From positions 1 through 25,248 of IMG/VR virus record IMGVR_UViG_2609459844_000006: DNA of 25,248 nucleotides; one strand, 5' to 3'. Of the stretch, positions 3,294 through 23,869 are shown one piece after another. The stretch is from a virus. Taxonomy: Duplodnaviria; Heunggongvirae; Uroviricota; Caudoviricetes. The translations under genes and the position numbers were made by a program. The notes below the pieces were generated by a model, which worked only from the letters and a program-made list of their open reading frames with translations, did not search any database and was not told where the DNA came from. Position 1 is the stretch's first letter, and every line of letters starts with the position of its first letter.

Positions 3294-3457
3294 GGCGTTT
3301 TACCTTTACGTTCCTGTTCCAGTTGCACCAGAGACTCTTTTAATGCTGCGAACGTAGCGTCCAGTCTGGTGGCAACTTCGCGCATAAGCGGTGCATGCTT
3401 TGGTGGCAGTTCAGCAACGGAGGCAAAAGCCTCCGTAACGAGTTCTTTTACCTTCAT
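3290..3457 (-). CDS. hypothetical small protein (55 aa)
   Basis: Not in the ORF track (below 60 aa). Hand-translated MKVKELVTEAFASVAELPPKHAPLMREVATRLDATFAALKESLVQLEQERKGKTP; start overlaps stop of upstream HD gene (ATGA) and its stop overlaps the next start, suggesting translational coupling. Confidence 0.35.
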   Translation of the reverse strand: MKVKELVTEAFASVAELPPKHAPLMREVATRLDATFAALKESLVQLEQERKGKTP

Positions 3458-3993
3458 GCGGCGCATTGGCGCAGCTCCGCCAGTTCGTTAAAGCGGTTCA
3501 TGAACAGGCCATAGGATTGACCTGGACGGAGAGGGATAACCTGAACGAGATCAGAGCAGGGAATACCTTCGAGAATTTCCCACTTCGAACCGTTATCGAT
3601 TTCCAGATCACGGCGCTCGGTAGCTAACATGGTTAGATCGGCGTATTTCACGACGGCAGATTGCTCAAGCGGGATACCGAATTTAAAGCGGATAAGACCA
3701 TCAACATAAGTTTCCATGCGCTGGTAGTCAGGCAGCAAGGCTTTGAGCGGGGCTGGAATATCCTGGCAATATGCCTCCGCAGCGTCGTGCATCAACGCTT
3801 CAAAGGCGAACTCTGGCGGCACAATCTGGCTTACAAGCACAGAGTGCTGGGCCACGCTGTAGAACTCTGGCAGATGCCCAGCGAATCGACAGATGTTGGA
3901 AAGAGCAGTCGCGATATCCTCAACATCGATATCGTCGATTGTGGCGGTCAGGTAGTTAAATTTTTTACCGGATAATGTCTGAATGTAGCTCAT
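3454..3993 (-). CDS. HD-domain phosphohydrolase (YfdR-like, 5'-deoxynucleotidase-type)
   Basis: H..HD motif (ALMHDAAEAY) typical of HD-superfamily metal-dependent phosphohydrolases; start set at internal ATG 3993 preceded by GGAGAAAACC. Confidence 0.6.
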   Translation of the reverse strand: MSYIQTLSGKKFNYLTATIDDIDVEDIATALSNICRFAGHLPEFYSVAQHSVLVSQIVPPEFAFEALMHDAAEAYCQDIPAPLKALLPDYQRMETYVDGLIRFKFGIPLEQSAVVKYADLTMLATERRDLEIDNGSKWEILEGIPCSDLVQVIPLRPGQSYGLFMNRFNELAELRQCAA

Positions 3994-13809: not shown

Positions 13810-14520
13810 GTGTATGGAGCGCTGAGAAACATGAATCAACAAGACCTGAACTTTGTCAGAATAGAACTGCGTCGCGCGCTACCTGACCTCTCTGGGGGAA
13901 CAAAAGGGCAGCTTGAGGCTTTCAGTGAACACCCACCAGCAGACAAAAATGCCACCCCGCGCCGTGGCATTCATCTCGTTGAACTCGAGGGAGAGGAGGG
14001 GCCTCGCTTTGTTAACTCTCTTTCCGCACCACTTTATGTGCTGGAAACACGCAGCCGCCGCAGACCAATGGCGCCAATAAAGGATATGGAGTTTGCATAC
14101 GCACCGTGGCGCCGTGCTGTTAATGCTCTCGACGATTACCAGCAGGCCTGGCTGCGTTACTGCTACGGCTTTGATTTGAGCTATAAACACCAGGTGATAA
14201 TGTGTGAGCACGTCTGGAAAAACTATCAGGATTGCCTCATTAAAAACCCGATGCAGTCCCGCGTGGTAAAGAAACTGATCGGCCTGGTATGGCTGGCAGG
14301 TCAGGAGGTTGCCGCCGAAAGGAACAATGAAACCTATAAGGATTATGCTGGCGCGGCGTTGGCCCGCATGGTTAGCGTTGACCGTTCGACATGGTTGCGT
14401 GTCTATTCAGGGCACTGGGCTGGGTTAAAGGCCGCTTTTATCCAGCTTGATGAGTCTGCGCTGGCTATAGCTCTTGAATACTATGAGGAAGAAGAAGCCC
14501 TCAAAGTGGCAGAAATGTGA
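13810..14520 (+). CDS. putative late-gene antiterminator (Q-like); start uncertain (GTG 13810 or ATG 13831)
   Basis: Immediately upstream of a promoter-like element and a short-transcript intrinsic terminator preceding the late/lysis region; assignment is positional. Confidence 0.45.
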   Translation: MYGALRNMNQQDLNFVRIELRRALPDLSGGTKGQLEAFSEHPPADKNATPRRGIHLVELEGEEGPRFVNSLSAPLYVLETRSRRRPMAPIKDMEFAYAPWRRAVNALDDYQQAWLRYCYGFDLSYKHQVIMCEHVWKNYQDCLIKNPMQSRVVKKLIGLVWLAGQEVAAERNNETYKDYAGAALARMVSVDRSTWLRVYSGHWAGLKAAFIQLDESALAIALEYYEEEEALKVAEM

Positions 14521-14550
14521 AGTAAATTTCACTATCTCCTTCAAACTCGC

Positions 14551-14579
14551 TTGCAAAATGCAACAAAATAAGCCATATT
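14551..14579 (+). promoter_or_regulatory. candidate late promoter (PR'-like): TTGCAA -17 nt- CATATT
   Basis: -35-like TTGCAA (14551-14556) and weak -10-like CATATT (14574-14579), about 35 nt upstream of an intrinsic terminator; eye-called only. Confidence 0.25.
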
Positions 14580-14612
14580 TGAAGCATATTTGATATGTTG
14601 CCAAAGTTCTAT

Positions 14613-14640
14613 AAACCCGCCAATGAGCGGGTTTTTTAAT
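14613..14640 (+). terminator. intrinsic terminator (tR'-like) downstream of Q-like gene
   Basis: AAACCCGC-CAATGA-GCGGGTT hairpin followed by TTTTTT. Confidence 0.7.
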
Positions 14641-14988
14641 TTTGCGGATAACTTTTTAATTGCTGGAAAGAGTGTTTTTTCGTTTTGATAGGAAAAAACG
14701 ATGAGTCGGTAACACAAGGCTCCAATGTGCGTAAGTATGATGGATATGATAGTTATGCACAGTATGTCAACAGCGTTCTGCTATTAATTATGTTGTGAAT
14801 AACCTTTTTTGTTGATAACTATTTTTTCTGTGGATAAGTCTATGGGTTTATTAAATTTTTATGCACAAGTAGAACGCTAATGATCCTGTACAATCCCGTA
14901 AAAGCTTCAATACTGATGACAGCAAGATAAAAACCTAACCAGTGAAGCTATTGAAAACATACAGGATTTGGTTTTCTTTGGGAAAATT

Positions 14989-15744
14989 ATGTCAGGACAG
15001 CCTGAGTCAAAAGAACAAGAACTGCTTACAACTATCCTCGATTACTTCCAGAAGGGAGAAATCCCGGATACAGAAACTATTTCGGAAATAGAGCACGATA
15101 TTGCTAAACTTCCAATAAGTGAGCGCGCACATGCGTATGCTTGGCTCAATGGCACTCTTGGGCGTCACTCTGATGCTGTACGTTTATTCAAAGACGCGAT
15201 GAGCTCTGGGAATTCCACGATCGCGCAAAACTACTTGGCGTATCTTTCTCGTTCGGCTCATAACTATGAGCATCGCGTTGAGTTGTTTAGATTGGTTGAA
15301 CTTTTCCCCTCACACGAACTGAGGCTTGTTGCAAGAAACGCTGCATTTTGTATCGGCAATGATAAATTGGTTAAAAAGTTCTCCCTCAAAATGGCTGCTC
15401 TTTATGATGGTCAGGAGCGAGAGGATATAATCAATCAGGGAAACTATATGGTTGAACAGATTGTTGATTTCAAAAACGCTACCCGTCTTTCTTCTAGAGA
15501 ACTAGAAGTTCTTTGTGATCGAGCTGAAGAGATTGCGAACAAGCGTGGTATTAACTGTTCAAGTGTTAGCTATTACCTTGGGGGTGATGATGACAATGCA
15601 TTCATCGTCAGAGCCCAAACTGCTGATCCGCAGGTTTTAGCTGAAATGAACATGGAACTGTTGGTTTTGCTCTCAGATGATAGTTATCGGAACAGTCCTT
15701 TTACATCCTGGTTCCAAAGTGATGAAAAACGAGGGATTTACTGA
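14989..15744 (+). CDS. hypothetical alpha-helical protein, cargo gene A of Q-to-lysis moron
   Basis: Start at ATG 14989 (MSGQPESKEQ...); AT-rich; no recognisable catalytic motif; stop overlaps start of gene B by 1 nt (TGATG). Confidence 0.5.
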   Translation: MSGQPESKEQELLTTILDYFQKGEIPDTETISEIEHDIAKLPISERAHAYAWLNGTLGRHSDAVRLFKDAMSSGNSTIAQNYLAYLSRSAHNYEHRVELFRLVELFPSHELRLVARNAAFCIGNDKLVKKFSLKMAALYDGQEREDIINQGNYMVEQIVDFKNATRLSSRELEVLCDRAEEIANKRGINCSSVSYYLGGDDDNAFIVRAQTADPQVLAEMNMELLVLLSDDSYRNSPFTSWFQSDEKRGIY

Positions 15745-16148
15745 TGAGCGTAACTGGGAAGGATTTTATTTTTTTTGCTGGTAAGTGCATTTCTCACAAC
15801 GATGAAATCGGTTACAGAAACGCCATTGGTCGCGCGTATTATGGAGTTTATCATGAAACACTTGATAAGCTTGAGAAGTGCCCAAACAAGTCATCACACC
15901 AAGCTGTTCGTGACTACCTTACAAATGACGCATGGTTAAAAGGAAATGAGCCGTTTGAAAAAATGAAACTCATTTCTATGGGAACAATGCTAAGACATTT
16001 GCATACCCGCCGTAAATGGGCAGATTACGAGCTTGATAGAACTTTAAGTAAGGCTGATGCAGAAGCTATATTAATCATGGCTAATAAAGCTATAGATACC
16101 CTTCAGCAAATGTATGAGCAGGTTTATCCATCCGAACCTGCTGCTTGA
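15744..16148 (+). CDS. hypothetical protein with Rx6H HEPN-like motif, cargo gene B of Q-to-lysis moron
   Basis: 134-aa ORF; motif GRAYYGVYH (R-x6-H) fits the HEPN Rx4-6H signature, though HEPN motifs are more often C-terminal; followed by two tandem intrinsic terminators. Confidence 0.5.
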   Translation: MSVTGKDFIFFAGKCISHNDEIGYRNAIGRAYYGVYHETLDKLEKCPNKSSHQAVRDYLTNDAWLKGNEPFEKMKLISMGTMLRHLHTRRKWADYELDRTLSKADAEAILIMANKAIDTLQQMYEQVYPSEPAA

Positions 16149-16164
16149 TTATCTATTCGAAATA

Positions 16165-16187
16165 ACCTCGCTTAGGCGGGGTTTTTT
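16165..16187 (+). terminator. intrinsic terminator 1 after cargo operon
   Basis: CCTCGC-TTAG-GCGGGG stem-loop (one G:U pair) followed by TTTTTTT. Confidence 0.6.
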
Positions 16188-16197
16188 TATGTCTTCG

Positions 16198-16220
16198 CAC
16201 CTCCATTTCGGAGGTGTTTT
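16198..16220 (+). terminator. intrinsic terminator 2 after cargo operon
   Basis: Perfect 7-bp stem CACCTCC-ATTTC-GGAGGTG followed by TTTT. Confidence 0.65.
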
Positions 16221-16358
16221 GCTGTGGAAATGGGCGGCTGGTGGGTGTTAGCGCACCCGGCCAGCCATCAGCTCATGCTTTCAGGTCACAAGCTAACCAA
16301 GGCCCACTGCTTTAGCGCAAAAGCAACGTGAGCCTATCAGAGTTACGCTTACTGATCT

Positions 16359-17411
16359 ATGGAAAATACTGTAAAAATAAACAGTATCGAGTTAATCAAC
16401 GCTGATAGCCTGCATTACGTCGCCACCCTCCCGGATAACTCTATTGATCTGATAGTTACGGATCCGCCTTACTTCAAAGTGAAGCCCAACGGCTGGGACA
16501 ACCAATGGAAAGGGGACGAGGACTACTTACGCTGGCTTGATAGCTGTCTGGCTGAGTATGCTCGCGTTCTTAAACCTGCTGGCAGCATTTACCTGTTTTG
16601 CGGTCACCGACTGGCCTCAGACATAGAGATTATGATGCGTGCCCGGTTCAACGTTTTGAATCATATAATTTGGGCAAAACCATCGGGCCGCTGGAATGGT
16701 TGTAACAAAGAAAGCCTGCGTGCGTACTTTCCATCTACGGAACGGATTTTGTTTGCAGAGCGCTATCCTGGCCCGTACACAGGTAAAGAGGATGTTTACG
16801 AAAGGAAAAGCACAGAGCTAAAGCAGCACATTATGACGCCGCTGATTGATTACTTCCGTAATGCCCGTGAATCACTGGGTGTCAGTGCGAAAGAAATAGC
16901 TGAGGCAACCGGAAAGAAAAACATGGCGTCACACTGGTTTGGTGCAAGCCAATGGCAACTACCGAATGAAGTGGACTACAAAAAATTACAGGAACTATTC
17001 ACGCGGATCGCTATCGATAAGCACATTCAGCAGAAGCTTGAACATCCTCACCACCAGCTGGTGGCTACCTACCAGTCATTAAACCGCAAGTATTCAGAAT
17101 TGCTGGAGGAATACAAAATCCTTCGGCGCTGCTTCTCTGTTTCCGCTCTTGTTCCGTATACCGACGTATGGACGCATAAGCCTGTTCAGTTTTATCCAGG
17201 CAAACATCCATGCGAAAAACCTGCCGATATGCTGAAGCAGATCATTAGCGCCAGCAGCAGGCCGGGGGATATCGTTGCCGATTTCTTTATGGGTTCTGGT
17301 TCAACGGTGAAAGCTGCAATAGCACTTGGCCGTCGGGCTATCGGTGTAGAACTGGAAGCAGACAGGTTTATTCAGACCACTGAAGAGGTGGAAAAACTGA
17401 ACAAAACATAA
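16359..17411 (+). CDS. orphan DNA methyltransferase (N6-adenine/N4-cytosine, beta-class motif order)
   Basis: DPPY motif (LIVTDPPYF) near N-terminus and FxGxG SAM-binding motif (FFMGSGST) near C-terminus; no adjacent restriction endonuclease candidate. Confidence 0.8.
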   Translation: MENTVKINSIELINADSLHYVATLPDNSIDLIVTDPPYFKVKPNGWDNQWKGDEDYLRWLDSCLAEYARVLKPAGSIYLFCGHRLASDIEIMMRARFNVLNHIIWAKPSGRWNGCNKESLRAYFPSTERILFAERYPGPYTGKEDVYERKSTELKQHIMTPLIDYFRNARESLGVSAKEIAEATGKKNMASHWFGASQWQLPNEVDYKKLQELFTRIAIDKHIQQKLEHPHHQLVATYQSLNRKYSELLEEYKILRRCFSVSALVPYTDVWTHKPVQFYPGKHPCEKPADMLKQIISASSRPGDIVADFFMGSGSTVKAAIALGRRAIGVELEADRFIQTTEEVEKLNKT

Positions 17412-17557
17412 CGATCATCACGCCCCTGTGGATGTGGTGAGCACCATTTTCAGGCACCGGGAATCATCCTTACTTTTATTTGAACAAAAGAGCCCGGTTG
17501 CCTGATTCCACATCCCCTCATTTCTGAGAGGAATCACAGCAATTAAGAGGGGGCTAA

Positions 17558-17944
17558 ATGTCCGATCCGATTTCCGGTTCTGGGATGGCTGGTGGTGTCC
17601 TGACGGGGGCCAGCGTCTATGGATTTCTGTCCGGAACCGATTACGGCGTGGTGTTTGGCGCATTTGCCGGGGCTGTATTTTACATTGCAACCGCAGCGGA
17701 TCTAAGTGCAGCGCGCCGACTGGCATATTTTCTGGTGTCGTATATCGCGGGGATCCTTTGTTCCGGGCTGGTGGGTTCAAAGCTGGCTCAGGCTACCGGC
17801 TACAGTGATAAACCACTGGATGCCATTGGCGCCGTAATCGTTTCTGCTTTAGCCGTCAAAATCCTGACATTCCTGAATAATCAGGATGTCGGCTCGCTGG
17901 TGGCGCTGATAACGCGCCGGGGAGGTTCAGGTGGTACAAAATGA
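17558..17944 (+). CDS. putative holin (small multi-TM membrane protein)
   Basis: 128-aa ORF with AGAGGGGG SD; Gly/Ala-rich hydrophobic segments consistent with 3 TM helices; immediately upstream of endolysin. Confidence 0.55.
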   Translation: MSDPISGSGMAGGVLTGASVYGFLSGTDYGVVFGAFAGAVFYIATAADLSAARRLAYFLVSYIAGILCSGLVGSKLAQATGYSDKPLDAIGAVIVSALAVKILTFLNNQDVGSLVALITRRGGSGGTK

Positions 17945-18212
17945 CCCATCGGCAACTTTTAATGCATTGCTTTGTGCTGGGGTAGTGTTAACCCTGATGT
18001 TTTACCGTCGCGGCGACTCGCGACATCGACCGTGGATATCTCGCTTAGCGTGGCTGCTTACGGTCATCTACAGCGCCGTTCCGCTGGCGTATCTGTGCGG
18101 TATTTACCCGTACTCATCATGGGCCACTATCGGGGCCAACTTTATTTTCCTGTCCGTGCTGGTCGCCGTAAGAGGCAACGTGGCACGTCTGGTTGATCAT
18201 CTGAGGCACTAA
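17931..18212 (+). CDS. second small membrane protein (holin/antiholin-like)
   Basis: GTG start with GGAGG SD 5 nt upstream; 93 aa with hydrophobic helices; overlaps upstream gene by 14 nt and abuts endolysin start. Confidence 0.45.
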   Translation: MVQNDPSATFNALLCAGVVLTLMFYRRGDSRHRPWISRLAWLLTVIYSAVPLAYLCGIYPYSSWATIGANFIFLSVLVAVRGNVARLVDHLRH

Positions 18213-18826
18213 TGAACCAATCACAATTTCAGCAGGCGGCTGGTATCAGCGCCGGGCTTTCTGCGCGCTGGTTTCCGCACATTGACGCGGCAATGAAAGA
18301 GTTTGGCATTACAGCTACGAACGATCTGGCTATGTTCATCGCCCAGGTTGGGCATGAGTCTGCTGGCTTTACCTCGCTGGTGGAAAGCTTCAACTACTCG
18401 GTAGAGGGGCTGAAGAAAACCTTTGGTAAACGGCTTACTCCTTATCAGTGTGAAATGCTGGGTCGTGTCGATGGTAAACAGGTGGCCCACCAGCCGCAAA
18501 TAGCCAATCTGGTTTATGGTGACCGCATGGGGAATAACAGCCAGGGTGACGGCTGGAAATATCGCGGTCGCGGCCTGCTGCAAATCACGGGTCGTGAGAA
18601 CTACACCAAATGCGGCACGGCGCTGAAACTTGACCTTATCAGTACGCCAGAATTGCTAACGCAAGAGCGACATGCGGCTCATTCTGCTGCGTGGTACTTC
18701 ACGTTACGCGGTTGTCTGATGTATTCGGGTGACGTGGCACGCGTTACGCAGATTATTAACGGCGGACAGAACGGCATTAAAGACCGCCGTGAACGTTACG
18801 CCAAAGCTAAAGCTGCACTGGTGTGA
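18212..18826 (+). CDS. endolysin (glycoside hydrolase family 19-like lysozyme)
   Basis: 204-aa soluble protein with MFIAQVGHESAGF segment resembling GH19 chitinase-type phage endolysins; positioned between holin-like and spanin-like genes. Confidence 0.7.
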   Translation: MNQSQFQQAAGISAGLSARWFPHIDAAMKEFGITATNDLAMFIAQVGHESAGFTSLVESFNYSVEGLKKTFGKRLTPYQCEMLGRVDGKQVAHQPQIANLVYGDRMGNNSQGDGWKYRGRGLLQITGRENYTKCGTALKLDLISTPELLTQERHAAHSAAWYFTLRGCLMYSGDVARVTQIINGGQNGIKDRRERYAKAKAALV

Positions 18827-18833
18827 GGTCAGT

Positions 18834-19103
18834 ATGGGGCTTGAAATGATTATCGGCCTGGTTGTTGCTGTGCTGGCTGCAATTGCAGGTGCTTTTGGGC
18901 TGGGCAAATCACGCGGTACCAGTATCGCTGAAACAAAAGCGGACCAACAACGCACTGAAGAACGTGCAATAGCTATTGAAGCGGTCGCAGAACGCCGGGT
19001 AGAAACAACAAAAGGAGCCAGGGATGTACAGCAGACTGTTAATCATCTTCCTGATGACGATGTTGACCGTGAGTTGCGCGAAAACTTTACCCGCAAAACC
19101 TGA
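18834..19103 (+). CDS. putative i-spanin (Rz-like; N-terminal TM helix + charged helical region)
   Basis: ATG 18834 after GAGG; N-terminal TM helix (IIGLVVAVLAAIAGAFGL) then charged alpha-helical segment; 3' end overlapped by lipoprotein ORF in another frame. Confidence 0.45.
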   Translation: MGLEMIIGLVVAVLAAIAGAFGLGKSRGTSIAETKADQQRTEERAIAIEAVAERRVETTKGARDVQQTVNHLPDDDVDRELRENFTRKT

Positions 19104-19248
19104 AGTAACGGACACGGCCTGTGACTGGGTAAGGCCAATCTATCTGACTGAACATGATATCGATGTTATGGACAAGCTTACAAAAAGAGACATCCTGATG
19201 CACAATAAGACGACTTCAAAAAACTGTCCAAAAAAAGATAATAATTAG
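19024..19248 (+). CDS. putative o-spanin (Rz1-like lipoprotein)
   Basis: Signal peptide with lipobox LTVSC; ORF start embedded in the 3' end of the Rz-like gene as in Rz/Rz1 pairs; not proline-rich, so assignment is tentative. Confidence 0.45.
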   Translation: MYSRLLIIFLMTMLTVSCAKTLPAKPEVTDTACDWVRPIYLTEHDIDVMDKLTKRDILMHNKTTSKNCPKKDNN

Positions 19249-19427
19249 ATATAGAATATTCAATTAAATCATATGGTTGCATTGGGTGTCGGTGATGGTG
19301 AACAACGTAATGCCTCTTTGAGAGTTCAGATATTAATGTTATAGTAACTCATTGTTTATTAGACATTAGTGTTTATTATAATTGGTATTTACTAATAAAT
19401 ACTTTTTGCATAATGCTATAGGTATAC

Positions 19428-19751
19428 ATGATGTCATCATTTAGTAAAATAACATCTGCCTTAGATAAATTATCTAAGTTCAGATCTGATAGTTTTGAAG
19501 TAGTTAAAGGTTATATTGATTTCGTTATGCCAATGGTGGCTAAGGCACAAGAACTCAAAATGAAAGAAGATGATGGAACTATCTCCGATGAAGAAAAGAT
19601 TCTGATTAAATTTTATGACGCGCATTTTGAAGATTTTAAAACGGCATTGAACAAAATTTCTCAGTATAATGATTCGGTATCTGATAACTATATTAAGGCA
19701 ATTGATTTGCTTGGTGATGTTAAGGAGAACATTAACAATGCAGATAAATAA
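19428..19751 (+). CDS. hypothetical soluble acidic protein, AT-rich cargo gene 1
   Basis: 107-aa ORF in strongly AT-rich DNA; no recognised motif. Confidence 0.4.
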   Translation: MMSSFSKITSALDKLSKFRSDSFEVVKGYIDFVMPMVAKAQELKMKEDDGTISDEEKILIKFYDAHFEDFKTALNKISQYNDSVSDNYIKAIDLLGDVKENINNADK

Positions 19752-20118
19752 TGTCTCAGATATGTCTAATCTGCTTGATTCATTGAAAAAACAAGTAGGT
19801 AAAGCTGAAGATGCTGCTGATGATGCAGAGGGTAAGGCTAACTCCAGTTCAAAAAACGAAGGTAAAACACGCAGTGCGCTCACGATTAGTTTTTTAGTCG
19901 GTTTCTTCGTGTTGATTGCACTTAGTGGCTTGTTTGTGCTTTGGTATAATAACAGTGTTGTGTCATGGGTTATAAATTTGCAACAGGCAGGAGTTTCAGA
20001 TGCCTCAACTTATCTGAAACCTTTGGAGTTAGAAAAAGTCTTGTCTGTAATAATCGGAGCATTAGGCACATCACTTGGTTTTATTATTGGTTATTATTTT
20101 AAAGAAAAAAATAAATAG
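19738..20118 (+). CDS. hypothetical 2-TM membrane protein, AT-rich cargo gene 2
   Basis: Start at ATG 19738 with AAGGAGAAC SD; two hydrophobic helices (ALTISFLVGFFVLIALSGLFVLW and LSVIIGALGTSLGFIIGYYF); overlaps gene 1 by 14 nt. Confidence 0.45.
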   Translation: MQINNVSDMSNLLDSLKKQVGKAEDAADDAEGKANSSSKNEGKTRSALTISFLVGFFVLIALSGLFVLWYNNSVVSWVINLQQAGVSDASTYLKPLELEKVLSVIIGALGTSLGFIIGYYFKEKNK

Positions 20119-20240
20119 CTGTTTTCAGACTTAAACACCCTCGATTACTAACTTCAAGTTTATGGGGGTGTTATATCAAACATAATTAATTCAATGCGTT
20201 CTGAAATATTATTTAAATTTTAAAATCTAGTAGATACAAT

Positions 20241-20264
20241 GCCTCGCAATCGCGGGGCTTTTTT
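20241..20264 (+). terminator. intrinsic terminator after AT-rich cassette
   Basis: GCCTCGC-AATC-GCGGGGC hairpin followed by TTTTTT. Confidence 0.55.
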
Positions 20265-20363
20265 ATGCGCATCGCACGTACACATCGAAGAAATCTTAGT
20301 CATCAGTCCGGACGGGCGCTTACATACCCAGTCCGCCCGTTACCTTTTAAAATGGAAAAGCCA

Positions 20364-21107
20364 ATGAAAGCCAAAGAATTTTTGAACAGCCATAAACTTG
20401 TGGTTATCAGTGATTTTATAAAAAGCATTGAAGCCATCCCTGAACAGAAATGGCTGCATGACTTTATGCAGGATGAATTAGCCTATCTGATTGAACGTGG
20501 TATGAACTGGGCAAAATTCGATGATGATGTGCCTGCTGAGATGATTCGAAGCGCTGCATGGTTAGTGGCTATGTCTAAAGCCTACTCAGGAAATTATCCC
20601 GTGAAACAGGTAGCCAATCCATCTCAAATAATTCAGGCATGGAGTGTTAAAAAAGATGGCAAACAGTATGCAGCCACTTTTAAAATAGCCATTGATACCA
20701 GTGAGGCTATTGCTGCTGTTGAAGTACTGGGTAAGAAAATTAAAGATGTTATTAATTCATTATCTATCGAAGATGAAATTAAAATTAAAAAATATGAATT
20801 ATCACATCTGACTTCCAGAAGTATGAATAAAGAAATGGTTGAACGTATCAGGCATATAGTTGATAAAGCTGCGAAGCATTGTCTTGATGGCCGGGCTATC
20901 CCAGAACAGAATAATAAAATTTCAGAAGCAACTTTCTGCTCTGTTGAGAGCACCGGCAGCATTGAACAGCAAGCGTTGAGCACTGTACTTGGAAATACCT
21001 TACACAATATTCCAGTCAGTGATGCTTCTTCTGTGGCGGTTGAGTTAGCTCAGGCTGTGAAAGCAGCATTTGATGTGCTGGAAAATAAGAATGCCGCCAC
21101 GCGCTAA
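20364..21107 (+). CDS. hypothetical protein (248 aa), function unknown
   Basis: Start chosen at ATG 20364 (MKAKEFLNSH...); ORF-track start 20265 lies inside the upstream terminator T-run and is unlikely. Confidence 0.45.
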   Translation: MKAKEFLNSHKLVVISDFIKSIEAIPEQKWLHDFMQDELAYLIERGMNWAKFDDDVPAEMIRSAAWLVAMSKAYSGNYPVKQVANPSQIIQAWSVKKDGKQYAATFKIAIDTSEAIAAVEVLGKKIKDVINSLSIEDEIKIKKYELSHLTSRSMNKEMVERIRHIVDKAAKHCLDGRAIPEQNNKISEATFCSVESTGSIEQQALSTVLGNTLHNIPVSDASSVAVELAQAVKAAFDVLENKNAATR

Positions 21108-21453
21108 ACGCCCATGCCGGCACAAGGGATGTGCGGCAATCACCAACGATACCAGCGGGTATTGTGAACAACACCGCCAGCAGCATGCCGGTGATGGCTG
21201 GCGCAACTATCAGGCAGGTAAAAGCAGGCAAGAACGAGGGTACGGTCGGCCCTGGGAAATCATACGGGCGCGCATCCTCCGGCGTGATCAATACCTGTGT
21301 CAGAAGCATCGACGGCAGAAGATAGCGAAGAAAGCGACCAGCGTTGACCACATCATTCCAAAAGCTCATGGCGGCACTGATGACGATTCCAACCTAGAGT
21401 CGTTATGCTGGGAATGCCACAGAGCGAAGACAGCAAGAGAACGTATTCGATGA
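21091..21453 (+). CDS. HNH endonuclease (phage packaging-associated type)
   Basis: Classic HNH motif VDHIIPKAHGGTDDDSNLESLCWECHRAKT plus N-terminal Cys cluster; start assumed at ATG 21091. Confidence 0.75.
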   Translation: MPPRAKRPCRHKGCAAITNDTSGYCEQHRQQHAGDGWRNYQAGKSRQERGYGRPWEIIRARILRRDQYLCQKHRRQKIAKKATSVDHIIPKAHGGTDDDSNLESLCWECHRAKTARERIR

Positions 21454-21538
21454 TAATATTCACTGCTGTAATGCATAAGAACAGTTTCTACATTCATGCA
21501 GATACCGGAAGATAAACGCGCAGCTTAAAGAGTCAGAC

Positions 21539-23869
21539 ATGGCGGCCAGCGTCGCCAAACAACGGGTGGCTGCGGCGGGAAAGGCAGCGGCAGAAGCGGA
21601 GGCACTGGAAGCACTCGGAAAGTCGAAGCTCTCGGATGCTATGCGTCTTATCAGCGCCAGGAACTATGAGATTTCTCTGTCAGCGCGTGCCGCCGCCGCG
21701 GGTACCGCGTTGCTGAACGGTGCACTGGCGATGGTAGGCGGGCCGGTCGGTCTGGGGATTATTGCGCTGGTTTCTGGCGTGACGGCACTGTGGTCTGCCT
21801 ACAGCAAAGCTGAAGAAAAAACGAAAGCCCTGAATGCGGCATTACTGCAAGGCAATAGTGGCGCGTCACTCAGCCTGACCCGGATCCGGGCGCTGAATAA
21901 AAGCCTGGGTGACACGGATGGCTCCATGAAGGCAGTGACGGCCGCGGTTAAGGCCGGGTTCAGCGGCGAGATGCTGGATCGCGTGTCCTCACTCGGTAGC
22001 CAGCTGGAATCACTGGGTGGGAATGCTGATGAGCTGGTCCGACAGCTGTCATCCATCAGTGGCGATCCGATCAAAGCGATGCAGGATGCCACGCAGCAGG
22101 GATACGAATTTAATGCTGCACAGATAGAACAGATTGCCACCCTGGCCCGCCTGGGTAAAACCGCCGAGGCGGTGGCGCTGGTGCAGAAAATCATGCTTGA
22201 TGACGTTGCGGACAAAATGAAGGAGCAACAGCGTCAGACTGAGGAGAGCATTGGCTGGTGGGAGAAGCTGAAGAAAGCTGTTTCTGAAGGGCTTGAGGGC
22301 TACGCTTCAGCGCAGATTGAGACCAGTCGCGCGATGGCGGCCGCGGTGGGGGTGGATATTGATGAGCCCGCCCGAAAGCTCAAAGAGAAGCGGGACGAAG
22401 AGAATAAACAGGAGGAAGACCGGGCTCAGGCCGCCCGTCAGCGCCAGGATGAGCAGAGCAAAGAAATCACCGCCCGGATAAATCTGGCCGCCTGGATCAA
22501 GGCCGGGACGGATAAAACCCGTCTTGCAGCAGAAGCCACCGCCGATCTCAGTACCCGCTATAAGGCCGGAAAAATCACCGCTGATGAGTACGCTTCTGCC
22601 CTGAGAGGGATAGACAAACTCTACGGTGATAAAAAAACCGGGGTGTCCGCCCATCAGGACAGCGAGGGTGTTCGCCGTCTGGCGCAACTGAAGCAACAGG
22701 AAGTGGTGCTGAAAGCGCAGGGGCGTGAAACGGAGCGGATGGGTGAAAGTCAGAAAAAATTACTGGCTTTTGAACAGGAAATCGCGTCTTACGCCGGGAA
22801 AAAACTGACAAAGGCCCAGGAAAGCGTACTGGCTATGCAGGATCAACTGCGTGCCCAGCTTGAAACTAACGCAGCCCTGGAGAAGCAAAACGCACAACGT
22901 AATCTGGCTGTGACGCTTGAAAAACAACTCCGGGATGTCAGGGAGGAAACGGCACGCCGTCAGCAGGAGCAGAATAACGCTGCTGCTCAGGTGACGATGA
23001 GCGACCGGGAATATGAGCAGATGGTCACCCTGCAACAGATCCGTGAGGATTTTGCGCAGAAACAGAAAGCGCTCGATGAGGAGGTAAAAGACCATTCATC
23101 AGTGCTTTACCAGGCACAGACACAGGCGCTTGCCGAAGAAATGCAGAGGCAGACTGAAATCGTCAAAAAAGGCGCCGAAGACAAAAAAGCGGCTGAGGAG
23201 GATTTTGCGGGAGCTGCCGCCGCAGGCATGAAGAACTGGATGGACAAGGCCGGTAACTATGCACAGCAGATAAAGGACGCTGTGTCGAGCGCCATGGACG
23301 GGCTGGCGGATAATATTGTCGCCACCCTTAACGGCAATAAAAGCTCATGGCGTGACTGGGGGACGATGATACTCCAGACCATTCAGAAAATTCTGGTGAA
23401 TGCCGCGCTGGTTAACGGCCTGAAGGCACTGGGCGGATCACTGGGTGGTGCCGGAGGGATCCTGGGAGGGATTGGCAGTGCAATTTCCGGTGTGGTGGGT
23501 AATGCCCGGGGGGGCGTCTATGACTCTCCGGGACTCAGTGCTTACAGCTCTACTGTCGTCGACAGGCCCACGCTGTTTCCGTTTGCCAAAGGGGCGGGAC
23601 TGATGGGGGAAGCGGGGCCGGAAGCGATTATGCCGCTGACCAGAGACAGTAAAGGTCGTCTGGCCGTCACCGCGACGGGAATGGAAGGGACGGGAGGTAG
23701 CGTGGTGGTTAATCAGCAGTTCAGTGTGCACATACAGAATGACGGCAGTAACGGTGAAATAGGCCCCGGCGCGCTGAAGATGGTGTATGAGATTGCCGAA
23801 CAGGCAGCAATGAAAACACTGACTGTGCAGGGGCGTGATGGTGGCAGGCTGAGCGGAGCATACAGATGA
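21539..23869 (+). CDS. tail tape measure protein (lambda gpH-like), probably N-terminally truncated
   Basis: 776-aa Ala/Gln/Glu-rich coiled-coil protein; C-terminal region (GPEAIMPLTRDSKGRLAV ... NDGSNGEIGPGALKMVYEIAEQ ... RDGGRLSGAYR) matches the gpH C-terminus; N-terminus appears to lack roughly the first 80 residues of lambda H. Confidence 0.8.
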   Translation: MAASVAKQRVAAAGKAAAEAEALEALGKSKLSDAMRLISARNYEISLSARAAAAGTALLNGALAMVGGPVGLGIIALVSGVTALWSAYSKAEEKTKALNAALLQGNSGASLSLTRIRALNKSLGDTDGSMKAVTAAVKAGFSGEMLDRVSSLGSQLESLGGNADELVRQLSSISGDPIKAMQDATQQGYEFNAAQIEQIATLARLGKTAEAVALVQKIMLDDVADKMKEQQRQTEESIGWWEKLKKAVSEGLEGYASAQIETSRAMAAAVGVDIDEPARKLKEKRDEENKQEEDRAQAARQRQDEQSKEITARINLAAWIKAGTDKTRLAAEATADLSTRYKAGKITADEYASALRGIDKLYGDKKTGVSAHQDSEGVRRLAQLKQQEVVLKAQGRETERMGESQKKLLAFEQEIASYAGKKLTKAQESVLAMQDQLRAQLETNAALEKQNAQRNLAVTLEKQLRDVREETARRQQEQNNAAAQVTMSDREYEQMVTLQQIREDFAQKQKALDEEVKDHSSVLYQAQTQALAEEMQRQTEIVKKGAEDKKAAEEDFAGAAAAGMKNWMDKAGNYAQQIKDAVSSAMDGLADNIVATLNGNKSSWRDWGTMILQTIQKILVNAALVNGLKALGGSLGGAGGILGGIGSAISGVVGNARGGVYDSPGLSAYSSTVVDRPTLFPFAKGAGLMGEAGPEAIMPLTRDSKGRLAVTATGMEGTGGSVVVNQQFSVHIQNDGSNGEIGPGALKMVYEIAEQAAMKTLTVQGRDGGRLSGAYR

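Follow-up and report, generated by a model that had tools for sequence, protein, structure and literature searches.

Does a terminator travel with cargo genes in lambdoid prophages? By definition, morons carry their own promoter and terminator (PMC3594210). The window (the whole stretch of 25,248 nucleotides analyzed here) contains two GC-rich hairpins of the form CCTCGC-N4-GCGGGG, each at the end of a cargo module, and a preliminary description proposed that they represent a shared, portable terminator that moves with the morons of this phage group. The window is a defective lambda-like (lambdoid) prophage in which the gene order proceeds from a Q82-type antiterminator through a methylase, the lysis genes, and an HNH gene to a tape-measure gene (Table 1). 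Our comparisons favor a different reading, to which we assign a probability of roughly 75%: the hairpins are probably two independent Rho-independent terminators of the late operon that share a generic stem, rather than a cargo-borne element.

Table 1 Features of the window discussed in the text, in order of position.
Feature	Position	Strand	Description
Late antiterminator Q, phage-82 type	13810..14520	+	PF06323 Phage_antiter_Q, E = 1.5e-37
Invariant 21-mer GCTTGCAAAATGCAACAAAAT	14549..14569	+	Block close to Q, expected site of the late promoter pR'; putative promoter
First terminator after the promoter block (tR'-equivalent)	14613..14640	+	ACCCGC-N6-GCGGGT allele; -12.0 kcal/mol
AT-rich cassette 1	14643..16163	+	Two unassigned genes (14968-15744, 15744-16148) and a 325-nt 5' region
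Hairpin 1	16164..16188	+	AACCTCGC-TTAG-GCGGGGTT plus T-run; terminator-like; CCTCGC-type tR' allele
Second, backbone hairpin	16197..16221	+	GCACCTCC-ATTTC-GGAGGTG plus TTTT; -13.8 kcal/mol
Nearly invariant non-coding block	16222..16358	+	Upstream of the methylase gene; most alignment columns invariant
N6/N4 DNA methylase, two holins, GH19 endolysin, i-spanin and o-spanin genes	16359..19248	+	Family matches
AT-rich cassette 2	19209..20240	+	Promoter-like site 19318-19345; overlapping genes 19428-19751 and 19738-20118
Hairpin 2	20241..20264	+	GCCTCGC-AATC-GCGGGGC plus T6; terminator-like; post-spanin backbone element in relatives
Conserved-leader remnant (TTTTTTATGCGCATCGCACG...)	20259..20297	+	84-95% identity over 38-51 nt to relatives
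AT-rich gene of unassigned function	20352..21107	+	In the variable slot behind the leader; overlaps the HNH gene start
HNH endonuclease gene, start of the packaging module	21091..21453	+	PF01844, E = 4.8e-14

The existence of two hairpins with a G:U pair and a T-run was borne out; they span 16166-16188 and 20241-20264 and are stable on the + strand only. Hairpin 1 reads CCTCGC-TTAG-GCGGGG-T7, its T-run reaching position 16188. The stems comprise 8 bp in hairpin 1 and 7 bp in hairpin 2, both loops contain 4 nt, and the G:U pair occupies the third stem position in each. RNA folding predicts energies of -12.3 and -13.2 kcal/mol for hairpins 1 and 2, respectively, and none of 200 shuffled sequences was equally stable. 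On the opposite strand, where a C/A mismatch replaces the G:U pair, the hairpins fold at only -7.8 and -9.6 kcal/mol and neither is followed by a U-run; T7 and T6 lie immediately 3' of the stems on the + strand alone. Both hairpins thus combine the features of intrinsic terminators, namely a G+C-rich stem within the range of 5-10 bp with a short loop, a U-run on one strand, and pairing that is conserved at orthologous positions. No Rfam family reached its gathering threshold in the window, and sub-threshold matches around the two sites are noise driven by the terminators.

The description of the hairpins as near-identical holds for the stem, the T-run, and the ATG that follows, to which their likeness is limited. 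All four loop positions differ between the copies, and local alignment of the flanks gave chance similarity, the downstream score being matched in 603 of 2000 shuffles and the upstream score in 822 of 2000. Treated as a 26-nt repeat of 81% identity, the pair does not stand out from other two-copy repeats that arise by chance within the same 8 kb (families D7 and D8). Extended homology between the two hairpins was rejected on the basis of these flanks and this ranking among ordinary repeats; a mobile hairpin resembling an integron attC site or a MITE was also rejected, as the flanks of the listed matches are unrelated and terminal repeats are lacking. The lack of related flanks around the two hairpins of the window leads us to conclude from the alignments that the pair does not consist of copies of a single portable element. 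For CCTCGC-N4-GCGGGG, a pattern set with knowledge of the sites, the window contains exactly two matches where 0.08 would be expected, and two matches arose in 1 of 100 shuffles.

The preliminary description had set its proposal against the possibility that the motif is a common generic terminator with no association to cargo boundaries. The generic half of that alternative is what we found: among the bacterial matches listed, the CCTCGC/GCGGGG stem is distributed over many phyla, a spread that argues against a portable terminator of one phage group, and in viral contigs it occurs with at least 45 different loops. An extra stem pair was present in 121/124 viral and 118/124 bacterial matches among those listed, and the T-runs of the listed matches exceed what the pattern required. 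Because 17 fixed bases would give about 70 chance matches in 596 Gb, the genome-wide scan was read for match quality only and not for enrichment. Judged by these matches, the stem is a generic and very common terminator form that is a major allele at both sites by happenstance.

The position of hairpin 1 was evaluated through the block that follows Q. This block is invariant in Flotzy, Eeyore, LLS, and phiNP; by our own reading it matches approximately 8 of 12 promoter hexamer positions, and it is absent from the output of the promoter scan. The 21-mer GCTTGCAAAATGCAACAAAAT alone retrieved 116 viral loci. Of 119 distinct loci identified through this 21-mer alone, 74 have the ACCCGC-type allele at +64 to +66, the offset that it has in the window, 37 contain a CCTCGY-N4-GCGGGG terminator there with 10 different loops, and two contain an all-Watson-Crick terminator. 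The tR' position therefore accommodates at least three alleles and 10 loops, and almost all of the 37 loci with the CCTCGC type lack the cassette 1 of the window. Window positions 16160-16196, which include the flanks of hairpin 1, are identical to the tR' region of locus L112 at 36 of 37 positions. In an alignment that took in phiNP, L112, L074, and L045, hairpin 1 was approximately 30/32 identical (own count) to the hairpin at the tR' position of the Citrobacter phage phiNP. By position and homology, hairpin 1 is thus an allele of the tR'-equivalent, the usual place of which is about 45 nt after the late-promoter block.

Transcripts from pR' are constitutive and end at tR', where Q permits read-through (PMC8065619). 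Hairpin 1 shares its orientation with the tR' of lambdoid and Stx phages, and it lies in the same variable region, between Q and the lysis genes, in which Stx phages carry stx (PMC8065619). Unlike tR', however, it is the second terminator after the promoter block: the first place is held by the other allele at 14613-14640, and the inserted cassette puts hairpin 1 1.55 kb downstream. The backbone hairpin that follows at 16197..16221 is retained with compensatory changes in Flotzy, Eeyore, LLS, and phiNP and is also present in many loci of set A. Folded jointly with this hairpin, the adjoining non-coding block gave z = -3.4; the block matched no Rfam family.

Cassette 1 (GC 34-46%) is missing in Flotzy, where Q and the methylase are separated by 336 bp. 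Its genes match phrog_17809 and phrog_5176 only, with no match in Pfam, PADLOC, or NCBIfam, and the promoter scan reported no promoter-like site on its + strand. The module is mobile, having been found in six other genomic contexts in which these distant homologues are followed by unrelated terminators, contrary to what a terminator bound to its cargo would predict. At shorter range the picture differs. Locus L132, which has a different Q gene and no methylase, shares with window positions 14683-16187 a 1.5-kb homology block of 76% identity that includes hairpin 1. Because hairpin 1 lies inside this block, the alignment indicates that it moved with cassette 1 into at least one other backbone, that of L132. 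For the same reason, hairpin 1 could have arrived in the window with cassette 1 and may not be native to this backbone. Cassette 1 thus kept its terminator in L132 and has different ones in the distant homologues.

Cassette 2 has a GC content of 29-38%. Its genes match phrog_21707 and phrog_20796, and its promoter-like site agrees with 10/12 positions and has an upstream TG, in a region where such sites are no more numerous than expected from shuffling. The cassette is missing in L020 and L088, in which the spanin gene is followed after 35 nt by the hairpin; further orthologues of hairpin 2 were found in L016, L035, L134, and L140. Homologues of cassette 2 elsewhere precede GCCACTGGC-type terminators, AGCCCCTC-type terminators, or none, at variable distances, and the terminators 3' of these homologues track the downstream module. 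With the hairpin present in the absence of the cassette and the cassette present with other terminators, hairpin 2 does not behave as cassette 2's own, and the idea that the two travel together was not upheld. From these comparisons, hairpin 2 corresponds to the terminator that in relatives comes immediately after the spanin genes and stands at the head of a conserved leader, and cassette 2 was inserted just upstream of it. In the o-spanin gene itself, a lipoprotein-type signal could be read in the sequence.

A search with the leader alone provided a view of hairpin 2 that was independent of its stem. Among 124 loci, the CCTCGC/GCGGGG stem lies upstream of the leader in 64; the remaining loci have more than 20 other stems in which pairing is still kept. 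In an alignment of 30 sequences, 6 of 8 predicted stem pairs were maintained through two-sided changes in at least one sequence. The equivalent hairpins of phi80 and HK639 are annotated as terminators. In phi80, the "putative rightward transcription terminator" (NC_021190, 43609-43631) is located downstream of Rz/Rz1, the same post-spanin position; it has the same stem (AGCCTCGC...GCGGGGCT), T6, and ATG, and the same leader motif (GCGCATCTCACGCGC) begins a few bases beyond it. The phi80 loop has 3 nt (GAT) whereas that of hairpin 2 has 4, the phi80 hairpin follows the spanin genes directly whereas the window has a 1-kb AT-rich cassette in between, and the window, unlike phi80, retains only about 40 nt of the leader. 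In the slot beyond the leader, L134 has a gene different from that of the window, which matched no family in Pfam, PHROGs, PADLOC, or NCBIfam. The ATG at 20265, immediately after the T-run of hairpin 2, was considered as the start of an open reading frame and is probably false; the frame contains stops in L035 and L088, and the hairpin leaves no ribosome-binding site unobstructed. The dominance of the G:U-bearing stem at both sites is left unaccounted for by the generic-terminator explanation.

These observations suggest how two independent late-operon terminators would operate in this prophage. In the lineage of the window, hairpin 1 is preceded by another tR' allele and by an AT-rich cassette of two genes. 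In the lysogen, transcripts starting at pR' or at a cassette promoter would stop at the hairpins, leaving the methylase, lysis, and packaging genes silent; insulation of the lysis and packaging genes is the most likely function of the hairpins. After induction, Q-modified RNA polymerase would pass through them, and such read-through is most likely in light of the PF06323 Q gene and the literature. We infer termination, promoters, and Q-dependent read-through at this locus.

The cassettes can now be compared with the morons of HK97 and HK022, which consist of promoter, gene, and terminator and deviate in base composition. Both cassettes resemble them as AT-rich insertions followed by a terminator, and the preliminary description was correct in that each hairpin marks the 3' edge of such an insertion, as judged from the absence of cassette 1 in Flotzy and of cassette 2 in L020 and L088. 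Cassette 2 may also be moron-like in its promoter-like site. Unlike those morons, however, cassette 2 ends at a terminator that belongs to the backbone and not to the insert, and cassette 1 has no promoter that we found and a terminator indistinguishable from a backbone tR' allele. As originally stated, the proposal has little consequence, as terminators beside prophage cargo belong to the textbook definition of a moron and the stem is generic. For annotation, the hairpins are useful as markers of the two classical cargo slots in this phage group, one after Q/tR' and the other between the lysis and packaging genes. The cargo here appears to use or share backbone terminators that would keep the lysis genes silent in the lysogen.

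A further role that is compatible with two late-operon terminators deserves consideration. The hairpins, in the case of hairpin 2 together with the first part of the leader, may also act as boundary sequences at which homologous recombination joins modules and stacks cassettes. Boundary sequences are an established concept for module exchange (PMC3029335). L016 shares 46 nt at 91% identity with the window and nothing else in common with positions 17400-22000; L035 and L140 share 51 nt at 84%; and L112 shares 37 nt at 97% between flanking segments of 68% and 77% identity. Moreover, some cassettes lie between two terminator copies, the left with the native upstream flank and the right with the native downstream flank; examples are cassette 1 of the window, L132, a tRNA cluster in L162, and L035. 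Like the linker sequences proposed to drive module exchange among lambdoid phages, these islands of 37-51 nt have high identity at module junctions with unrelated flanks. They differ in serving an evident purpose as terminator and leader, which would be expected to conserve them equally well, and their role in recombination is putative. Examples are scarce and came from searches for the motif, and selection for insulated products of illegitimate recombination would leave the same pattern. We therefore hold this added role tentatively, at somewhat below even odds.

A more elaborate version builds on the leader. The hairpin and the structured leader of about 130 nt, with a long GAGCCTG/CAGGCTC stem, that comes after hairpin 2 in relatives could constitute a reusable platform of terminator, 5'UTR, and Shine-Dalgarno sequence that doubles as a recombination joint of lambdoid phages, a possibility that we consider rather unlikely as a whole. 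At least 15 accessory gene families were found behind one leader, and terminator-leader units sit at no fewer than two places in the genome, one behind the lysis genes and another behind the gene for the major tail protein. It is conceivable, though again doubtful, that unrelated accessory genes are swapped precisely at the ATG, with units stacked in tandem and cassettes bracketed by two terminators. If such a platform exists, there would indeed be a portable terminator, but it would mark the 5' boundary of a cassette system and not the 3' end of a moron. It would provide a sequence handle on slots for accessory and defence genes in lambdoid prophages and render the old linker-sequence model of module exchange testable.

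Improbable in our estimate is the original proposal, in which the terminator belongs to the moron cassettes and is carried along when they pass from one phage of this group to another. It draws on the homology with L132, which spans hairpin 1 despite differing backbones, on a hairpin 2-type terminator with its leader located between the HK639 major tail protein gene and an accessory gene, and on tandem arrays of this unit in L271, L291, and L313. Against it, both hairpin types are present at the same backbone positions in phages without the cassettes. Such positional orthologues of each hairpin, the other or missing terminators of cassette 2 homologues, the unrelated ones in the six contexts of cassette 1, and the lack of a common flank between the two copies in the window all argue against a single travelling element. 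Pure coincidence, with one or both hairpins functionless, is very improbable: the common sequence is just 21/26 nt, repeats of similar quality lie nearby, and the pattern was set with the sites in hand, but each hairpin is anatomically a complete terminator, each is retained at orthologous positions where loops vary and stems are replaced in a compensatory manner, and reference phages have equivalents annotated as terminators.

The cargo proteins matched only PHROGs of unassigned function, with no match in Pfam, NCBIfam, or PADLOC. One distant homologue of the 134-aa cargo protein has a precomputed match to the HEPN domain (PF05168).

Hairpins 1 and 2 are ordinary predicted terminators of known kind at two classical lambdoid cargo slots, and the stem common to both is a generic, frequent form. 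The preliminary description had reported two CCTCGC-N4-GCGGGG hairpins, each with a G:U pair and a T-run. Both were found where it had placed them, and both fold stably as single-hairpin RNAs (-12.3 kcal/mol for hairpin 1 and -13.2 kcal/mol for hairpin 2), beating 200 of 200 shuffles. The G:U wobble at the third stem position makes the hairpins strand-specific; on the opposite strand it becomes a C/A mismatch, the folds weaken to -7.8 and -9.6 kcal/mol, respectively, and the stems have no U-run on their 3' side. The pattern, set only after both sites had been seen, matches the window twice against 0.08 expected. Near-identity of the hairpins holds for the stem, T-run, and ATG but not for the flanks beyond them, which align at shuffle level (603/2000 and 822/2000 shuffles). 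The 26-nt, 81% repeat formed by both hairpins ranks with the ordinary chance repeats of the region.

Features of the window and leader copies in related loci
Feature	Position	Strand	Remarks
RusA, antirepressor, DUF968	5' of Q	+	in this order
Q, phage-82 type	13810-14520	+	PF06323
First terminator	14613-14640		3' of promoter block
AT-rich two-gene block (cassette 1)	between Q and methylase	+
Hairpin 1	16164-16188	+	AACCTCGC-TTAG-GCGGGGTT, then T-run to 16188
Backbone hairpin	16197-16221
N6/N4 methylase, two holins, GH19 endolysin, spanin genes	3' of cassette 1	+
AT-rich two-gene block (cassette 2), AT-rich gene of unknown function, HNH	3' of spanin genes	+	in this order
Promoter-like site	19318-19345		in cassette 2
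Hairpin 2	20241-20264	+	GCCTCGC-AATC-GCGGGGC, then TTTTTT
Leader remnant	20259-20297		first ~40 nt only
HNH endonuclease and tape-measure genes	21091-23869	+	tape-measure gene starts 85 nt after HNH
Leader, full form	L016:2838-3177; L273:2228-2432	-
Leader, full form	phi80 L506:375-510 and 1990-2125

The window is an enterobacterial lambdoid prophage. Its lysis genes are at most ~89% identical to those of complete E. coli genomes, none of which is close to the window. The tape-measure product aligns over residues 59-776 with positions 303-1056 of a profile of 1151 positions. The window has no terminase, portal, head, or tail-tube genes; the prophage is therefore defective, a deletion remnant.

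The block 3' of Q, which is followed by the first terminator, shows no variation among phages Flotzy, Eeyore, LLS, and phiNP. These phages also keep the backbone hairpin and a ~140-nt block before the methylase. Only 336 bp separate Q from the methylase in Flotzy, and window positions ~14643-16163 are therefore an insertion. Hairpin 1 lies between this insertion and the conserved backbone elements. By manual count, ~30/32 of its positions are identical to the terminator that comes first after the promoter block in Citrobacter phage phiNP; with its flanks, it matches the corresponding terminator of the related locus L112 at 36 of 37. We retrieved 119 distinct sequences with the invariant promoter-block 21-mer alone, leaving the hairpin out of the query. 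At +64 to +66, 74 of them have the terminator ACCCGC-N6-GCGGGT and 37 have CCTCGY-N4-GCGGGG (ten different loops); two carry the all-Watson-Crick CCTCGC/GCGAGG. By these sequence counts, hairpin 1 is thus one of two common alleles of a predicted equivalent of tR', the terminator after late promoter pR'. Among the 119 loci, only the window lineage has this allele behind a 1.5-kb cassette and the other allele in front.

Whether hairpin 1 travels with cassette 1 depends on the relatives considered. The related locus L132, which has a different Q gene and lacks the methylase, contains a copy of the cassette matching window 14683-16187 at 76%; the block takes in the hairpin (loop TACG), and upstream of the cassette stands another CCTCGC hairpin with loop TTCG. 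Homologues of the two genes at greater distance (45-58% identical as proteins) occupy very different sites. These include late regions in two other prophages, positions beside a prophage integrase, beside smpB (with genes of the Abi_2 and SRAP families close by), and near umuDC and a resolvase, and an Erwinia chromosome. Terminators 3' of these homologues are unrelated or of the other tR'-like types. The module (14968-16148) is mobile on its own. It encodes proteins of ~255 and 134 amino acids with overlapping stop and start. One homologue of the 134-residue protein has a precomputed HEPN domain match (PF05168), and PADLOC gave no match for the module, a candidate toxin-antitoxin or defence pair.

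Hairpin 2 belongs to the backbone rather than to cassette 2. In the related loci L020 and L088, lysis-gene homology to the window ends at 19208 and resumes at hairpin 2 only 35 nt on; window 19209-20240 was therefore inserted upstream of a pre-existing terminator. Homologues of the 126-residue cassette 2 protein are followed by the hairpin 2 type only if the same leader comes next (L134, L140-143). The others have GCCACTGGC-type or AGCCCCTC-type terminators at +63 to +630 nt, which track a different downstream module, or none that is clear. In L135 and L136, homology to the window ends exactly at the stop codon (20118). With only the leader (TTTTANGCGCNTCNCACGCGC) as query, we retrieved 124 sites; 64 have CCTCGC/GCGGGG 5' of the leader, with many loops; the rest carry more than 20 different stems with pairing kept. 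In phage phi80, this hairpin and the leader come after Rz/Rz1, where the hairpin is annotated as a putative rightward terminator, and in HK639 the leader lies 3' of an annotated terminator after the major tail protein gene.

This terminator-plus-leader platform is a more promising lead than the hairpin motif. In relatives, the conserved ~130-nt leader has, in this order, an invariant TGCGC-N7-GCGCA, a long stem (GAGCCTG...CAGGCTC) in which some changes are compensatory, AAAGGA, and ATG; Rfam returned no family match for it. Among 96 ORFs examined 3' of it, at least 15 unrelated gene families are represented. phi80 has two copies, and L271, L291, and L313 contain tandem arrays of terminator, leader, and gene.

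The 22-nt pattern occurs at no fewer than 124 sites with at least 45 loops in viral contigs, with mostly unrelated flanks among the matches listed. Bacterial matches listed span many lineages, including Patescibacteria, Bacilli, Bacteroidetes, and Alpha- and Gammaproteobacteria. Chance would give ~70 matches in 596 Gb. The stem gains a further pair in 121/124 viral and 118/124 genome matches listed, and at least 7 of the 9 bases 3' of the stem are T in most; by sequence, the matches thus resemble terminators in behaviour. This spread is that of a common generic terminator, the first half of what the preliminary description had named as refuting its portable moron terminator. That proposal is partly supported, in that each hairpin lies at the 3' edge of an insertion and the cassette copy in L132 includes hairpin 1; the generic stem and the backbone positions of the hairpins speak against it. 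At allele frequencies of ~31% and ~52%, it is no surprise that one phage has the stem at both sites, as L112 also does. At the third stem position, G:U outnumbers Watson-Crick 64 to 2 5' of the leader and 37 to 2 at the tR' position. A Morganella prophage has a CCCCGC/GCGGGG version (L504:2095-2145).

Lambdoid pR' is constitutive; without Q its transcript stops at tR', and polymerase once modified by Q disregards the terminators downstream (PMC8065619). A moron is an insertion that is expressed while the prophage is repressed and has a promoter and a terminator of its own (PMC3594210). In the lysogen, the pR' transcript would end at the 14613 hairpin. Any transcript from cassette 1 would end at hairpin 1 or the 16197 hairpin, ahead of the methylase and lysis genes, and hairpin 2 would stop those of cassette 2 ahead of packaging genes. 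Upon induction, Q would override all four hairpins.

It is tempting to speculate that the hairpin and leader islands have a second role in homologous exchange, an old idea for short conserved boundary sequences (PMC3029335), which we consider possible but rather doubtful here. Several cassettes lie between two terminator copies (among them cassette 1, L132, L035, and a tRNA cluster in L162), with the native upstream flank on the left copy and the native downstream flank on the right. Short islands of identity also lie between otherwise unrelated DNA, as in L112 and in L016, which shares with window 17400-22000 only 46 nt at 91% (the hairpin and leader start). However, illegitimate recombination with selection for insulated recombinants fits the bracketing and islands equally well.

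The promoter block and first terminator (14574-14640) would, by our own reading, yield a constitutive lysogen transcript of ~50-60 nt. Such an RNA would be the counterpart of the short pR'-tR' transcript in Stx phages, which is reported to have a regulatory role (PMC8065619). The non-coding ~140 nt 5' of the methylase (16222-16358) vary hardly at all among Flotzy, Eeyore, LLS, and phiNP, match many Stx2c phages at 88.7%, and are strongly structured when folded with the preceding hairpin (z = -3.4); Rfam returned no family match. Third positions of a 33-codon ORF within them are conserved as much as the others, which speaks for an element acting as RNA or DNA. The L162 cluster (- strand, ~3400-3810) comprises four predicted tRNA genes (Met, one of undetermined anticodon, Thr, and Gly) between two CCTCGC-type hairpins downstream of a Q82-type promoter block, an arrangement reminiscent of Stx phages, which have tRNA genes downstream of pR'.
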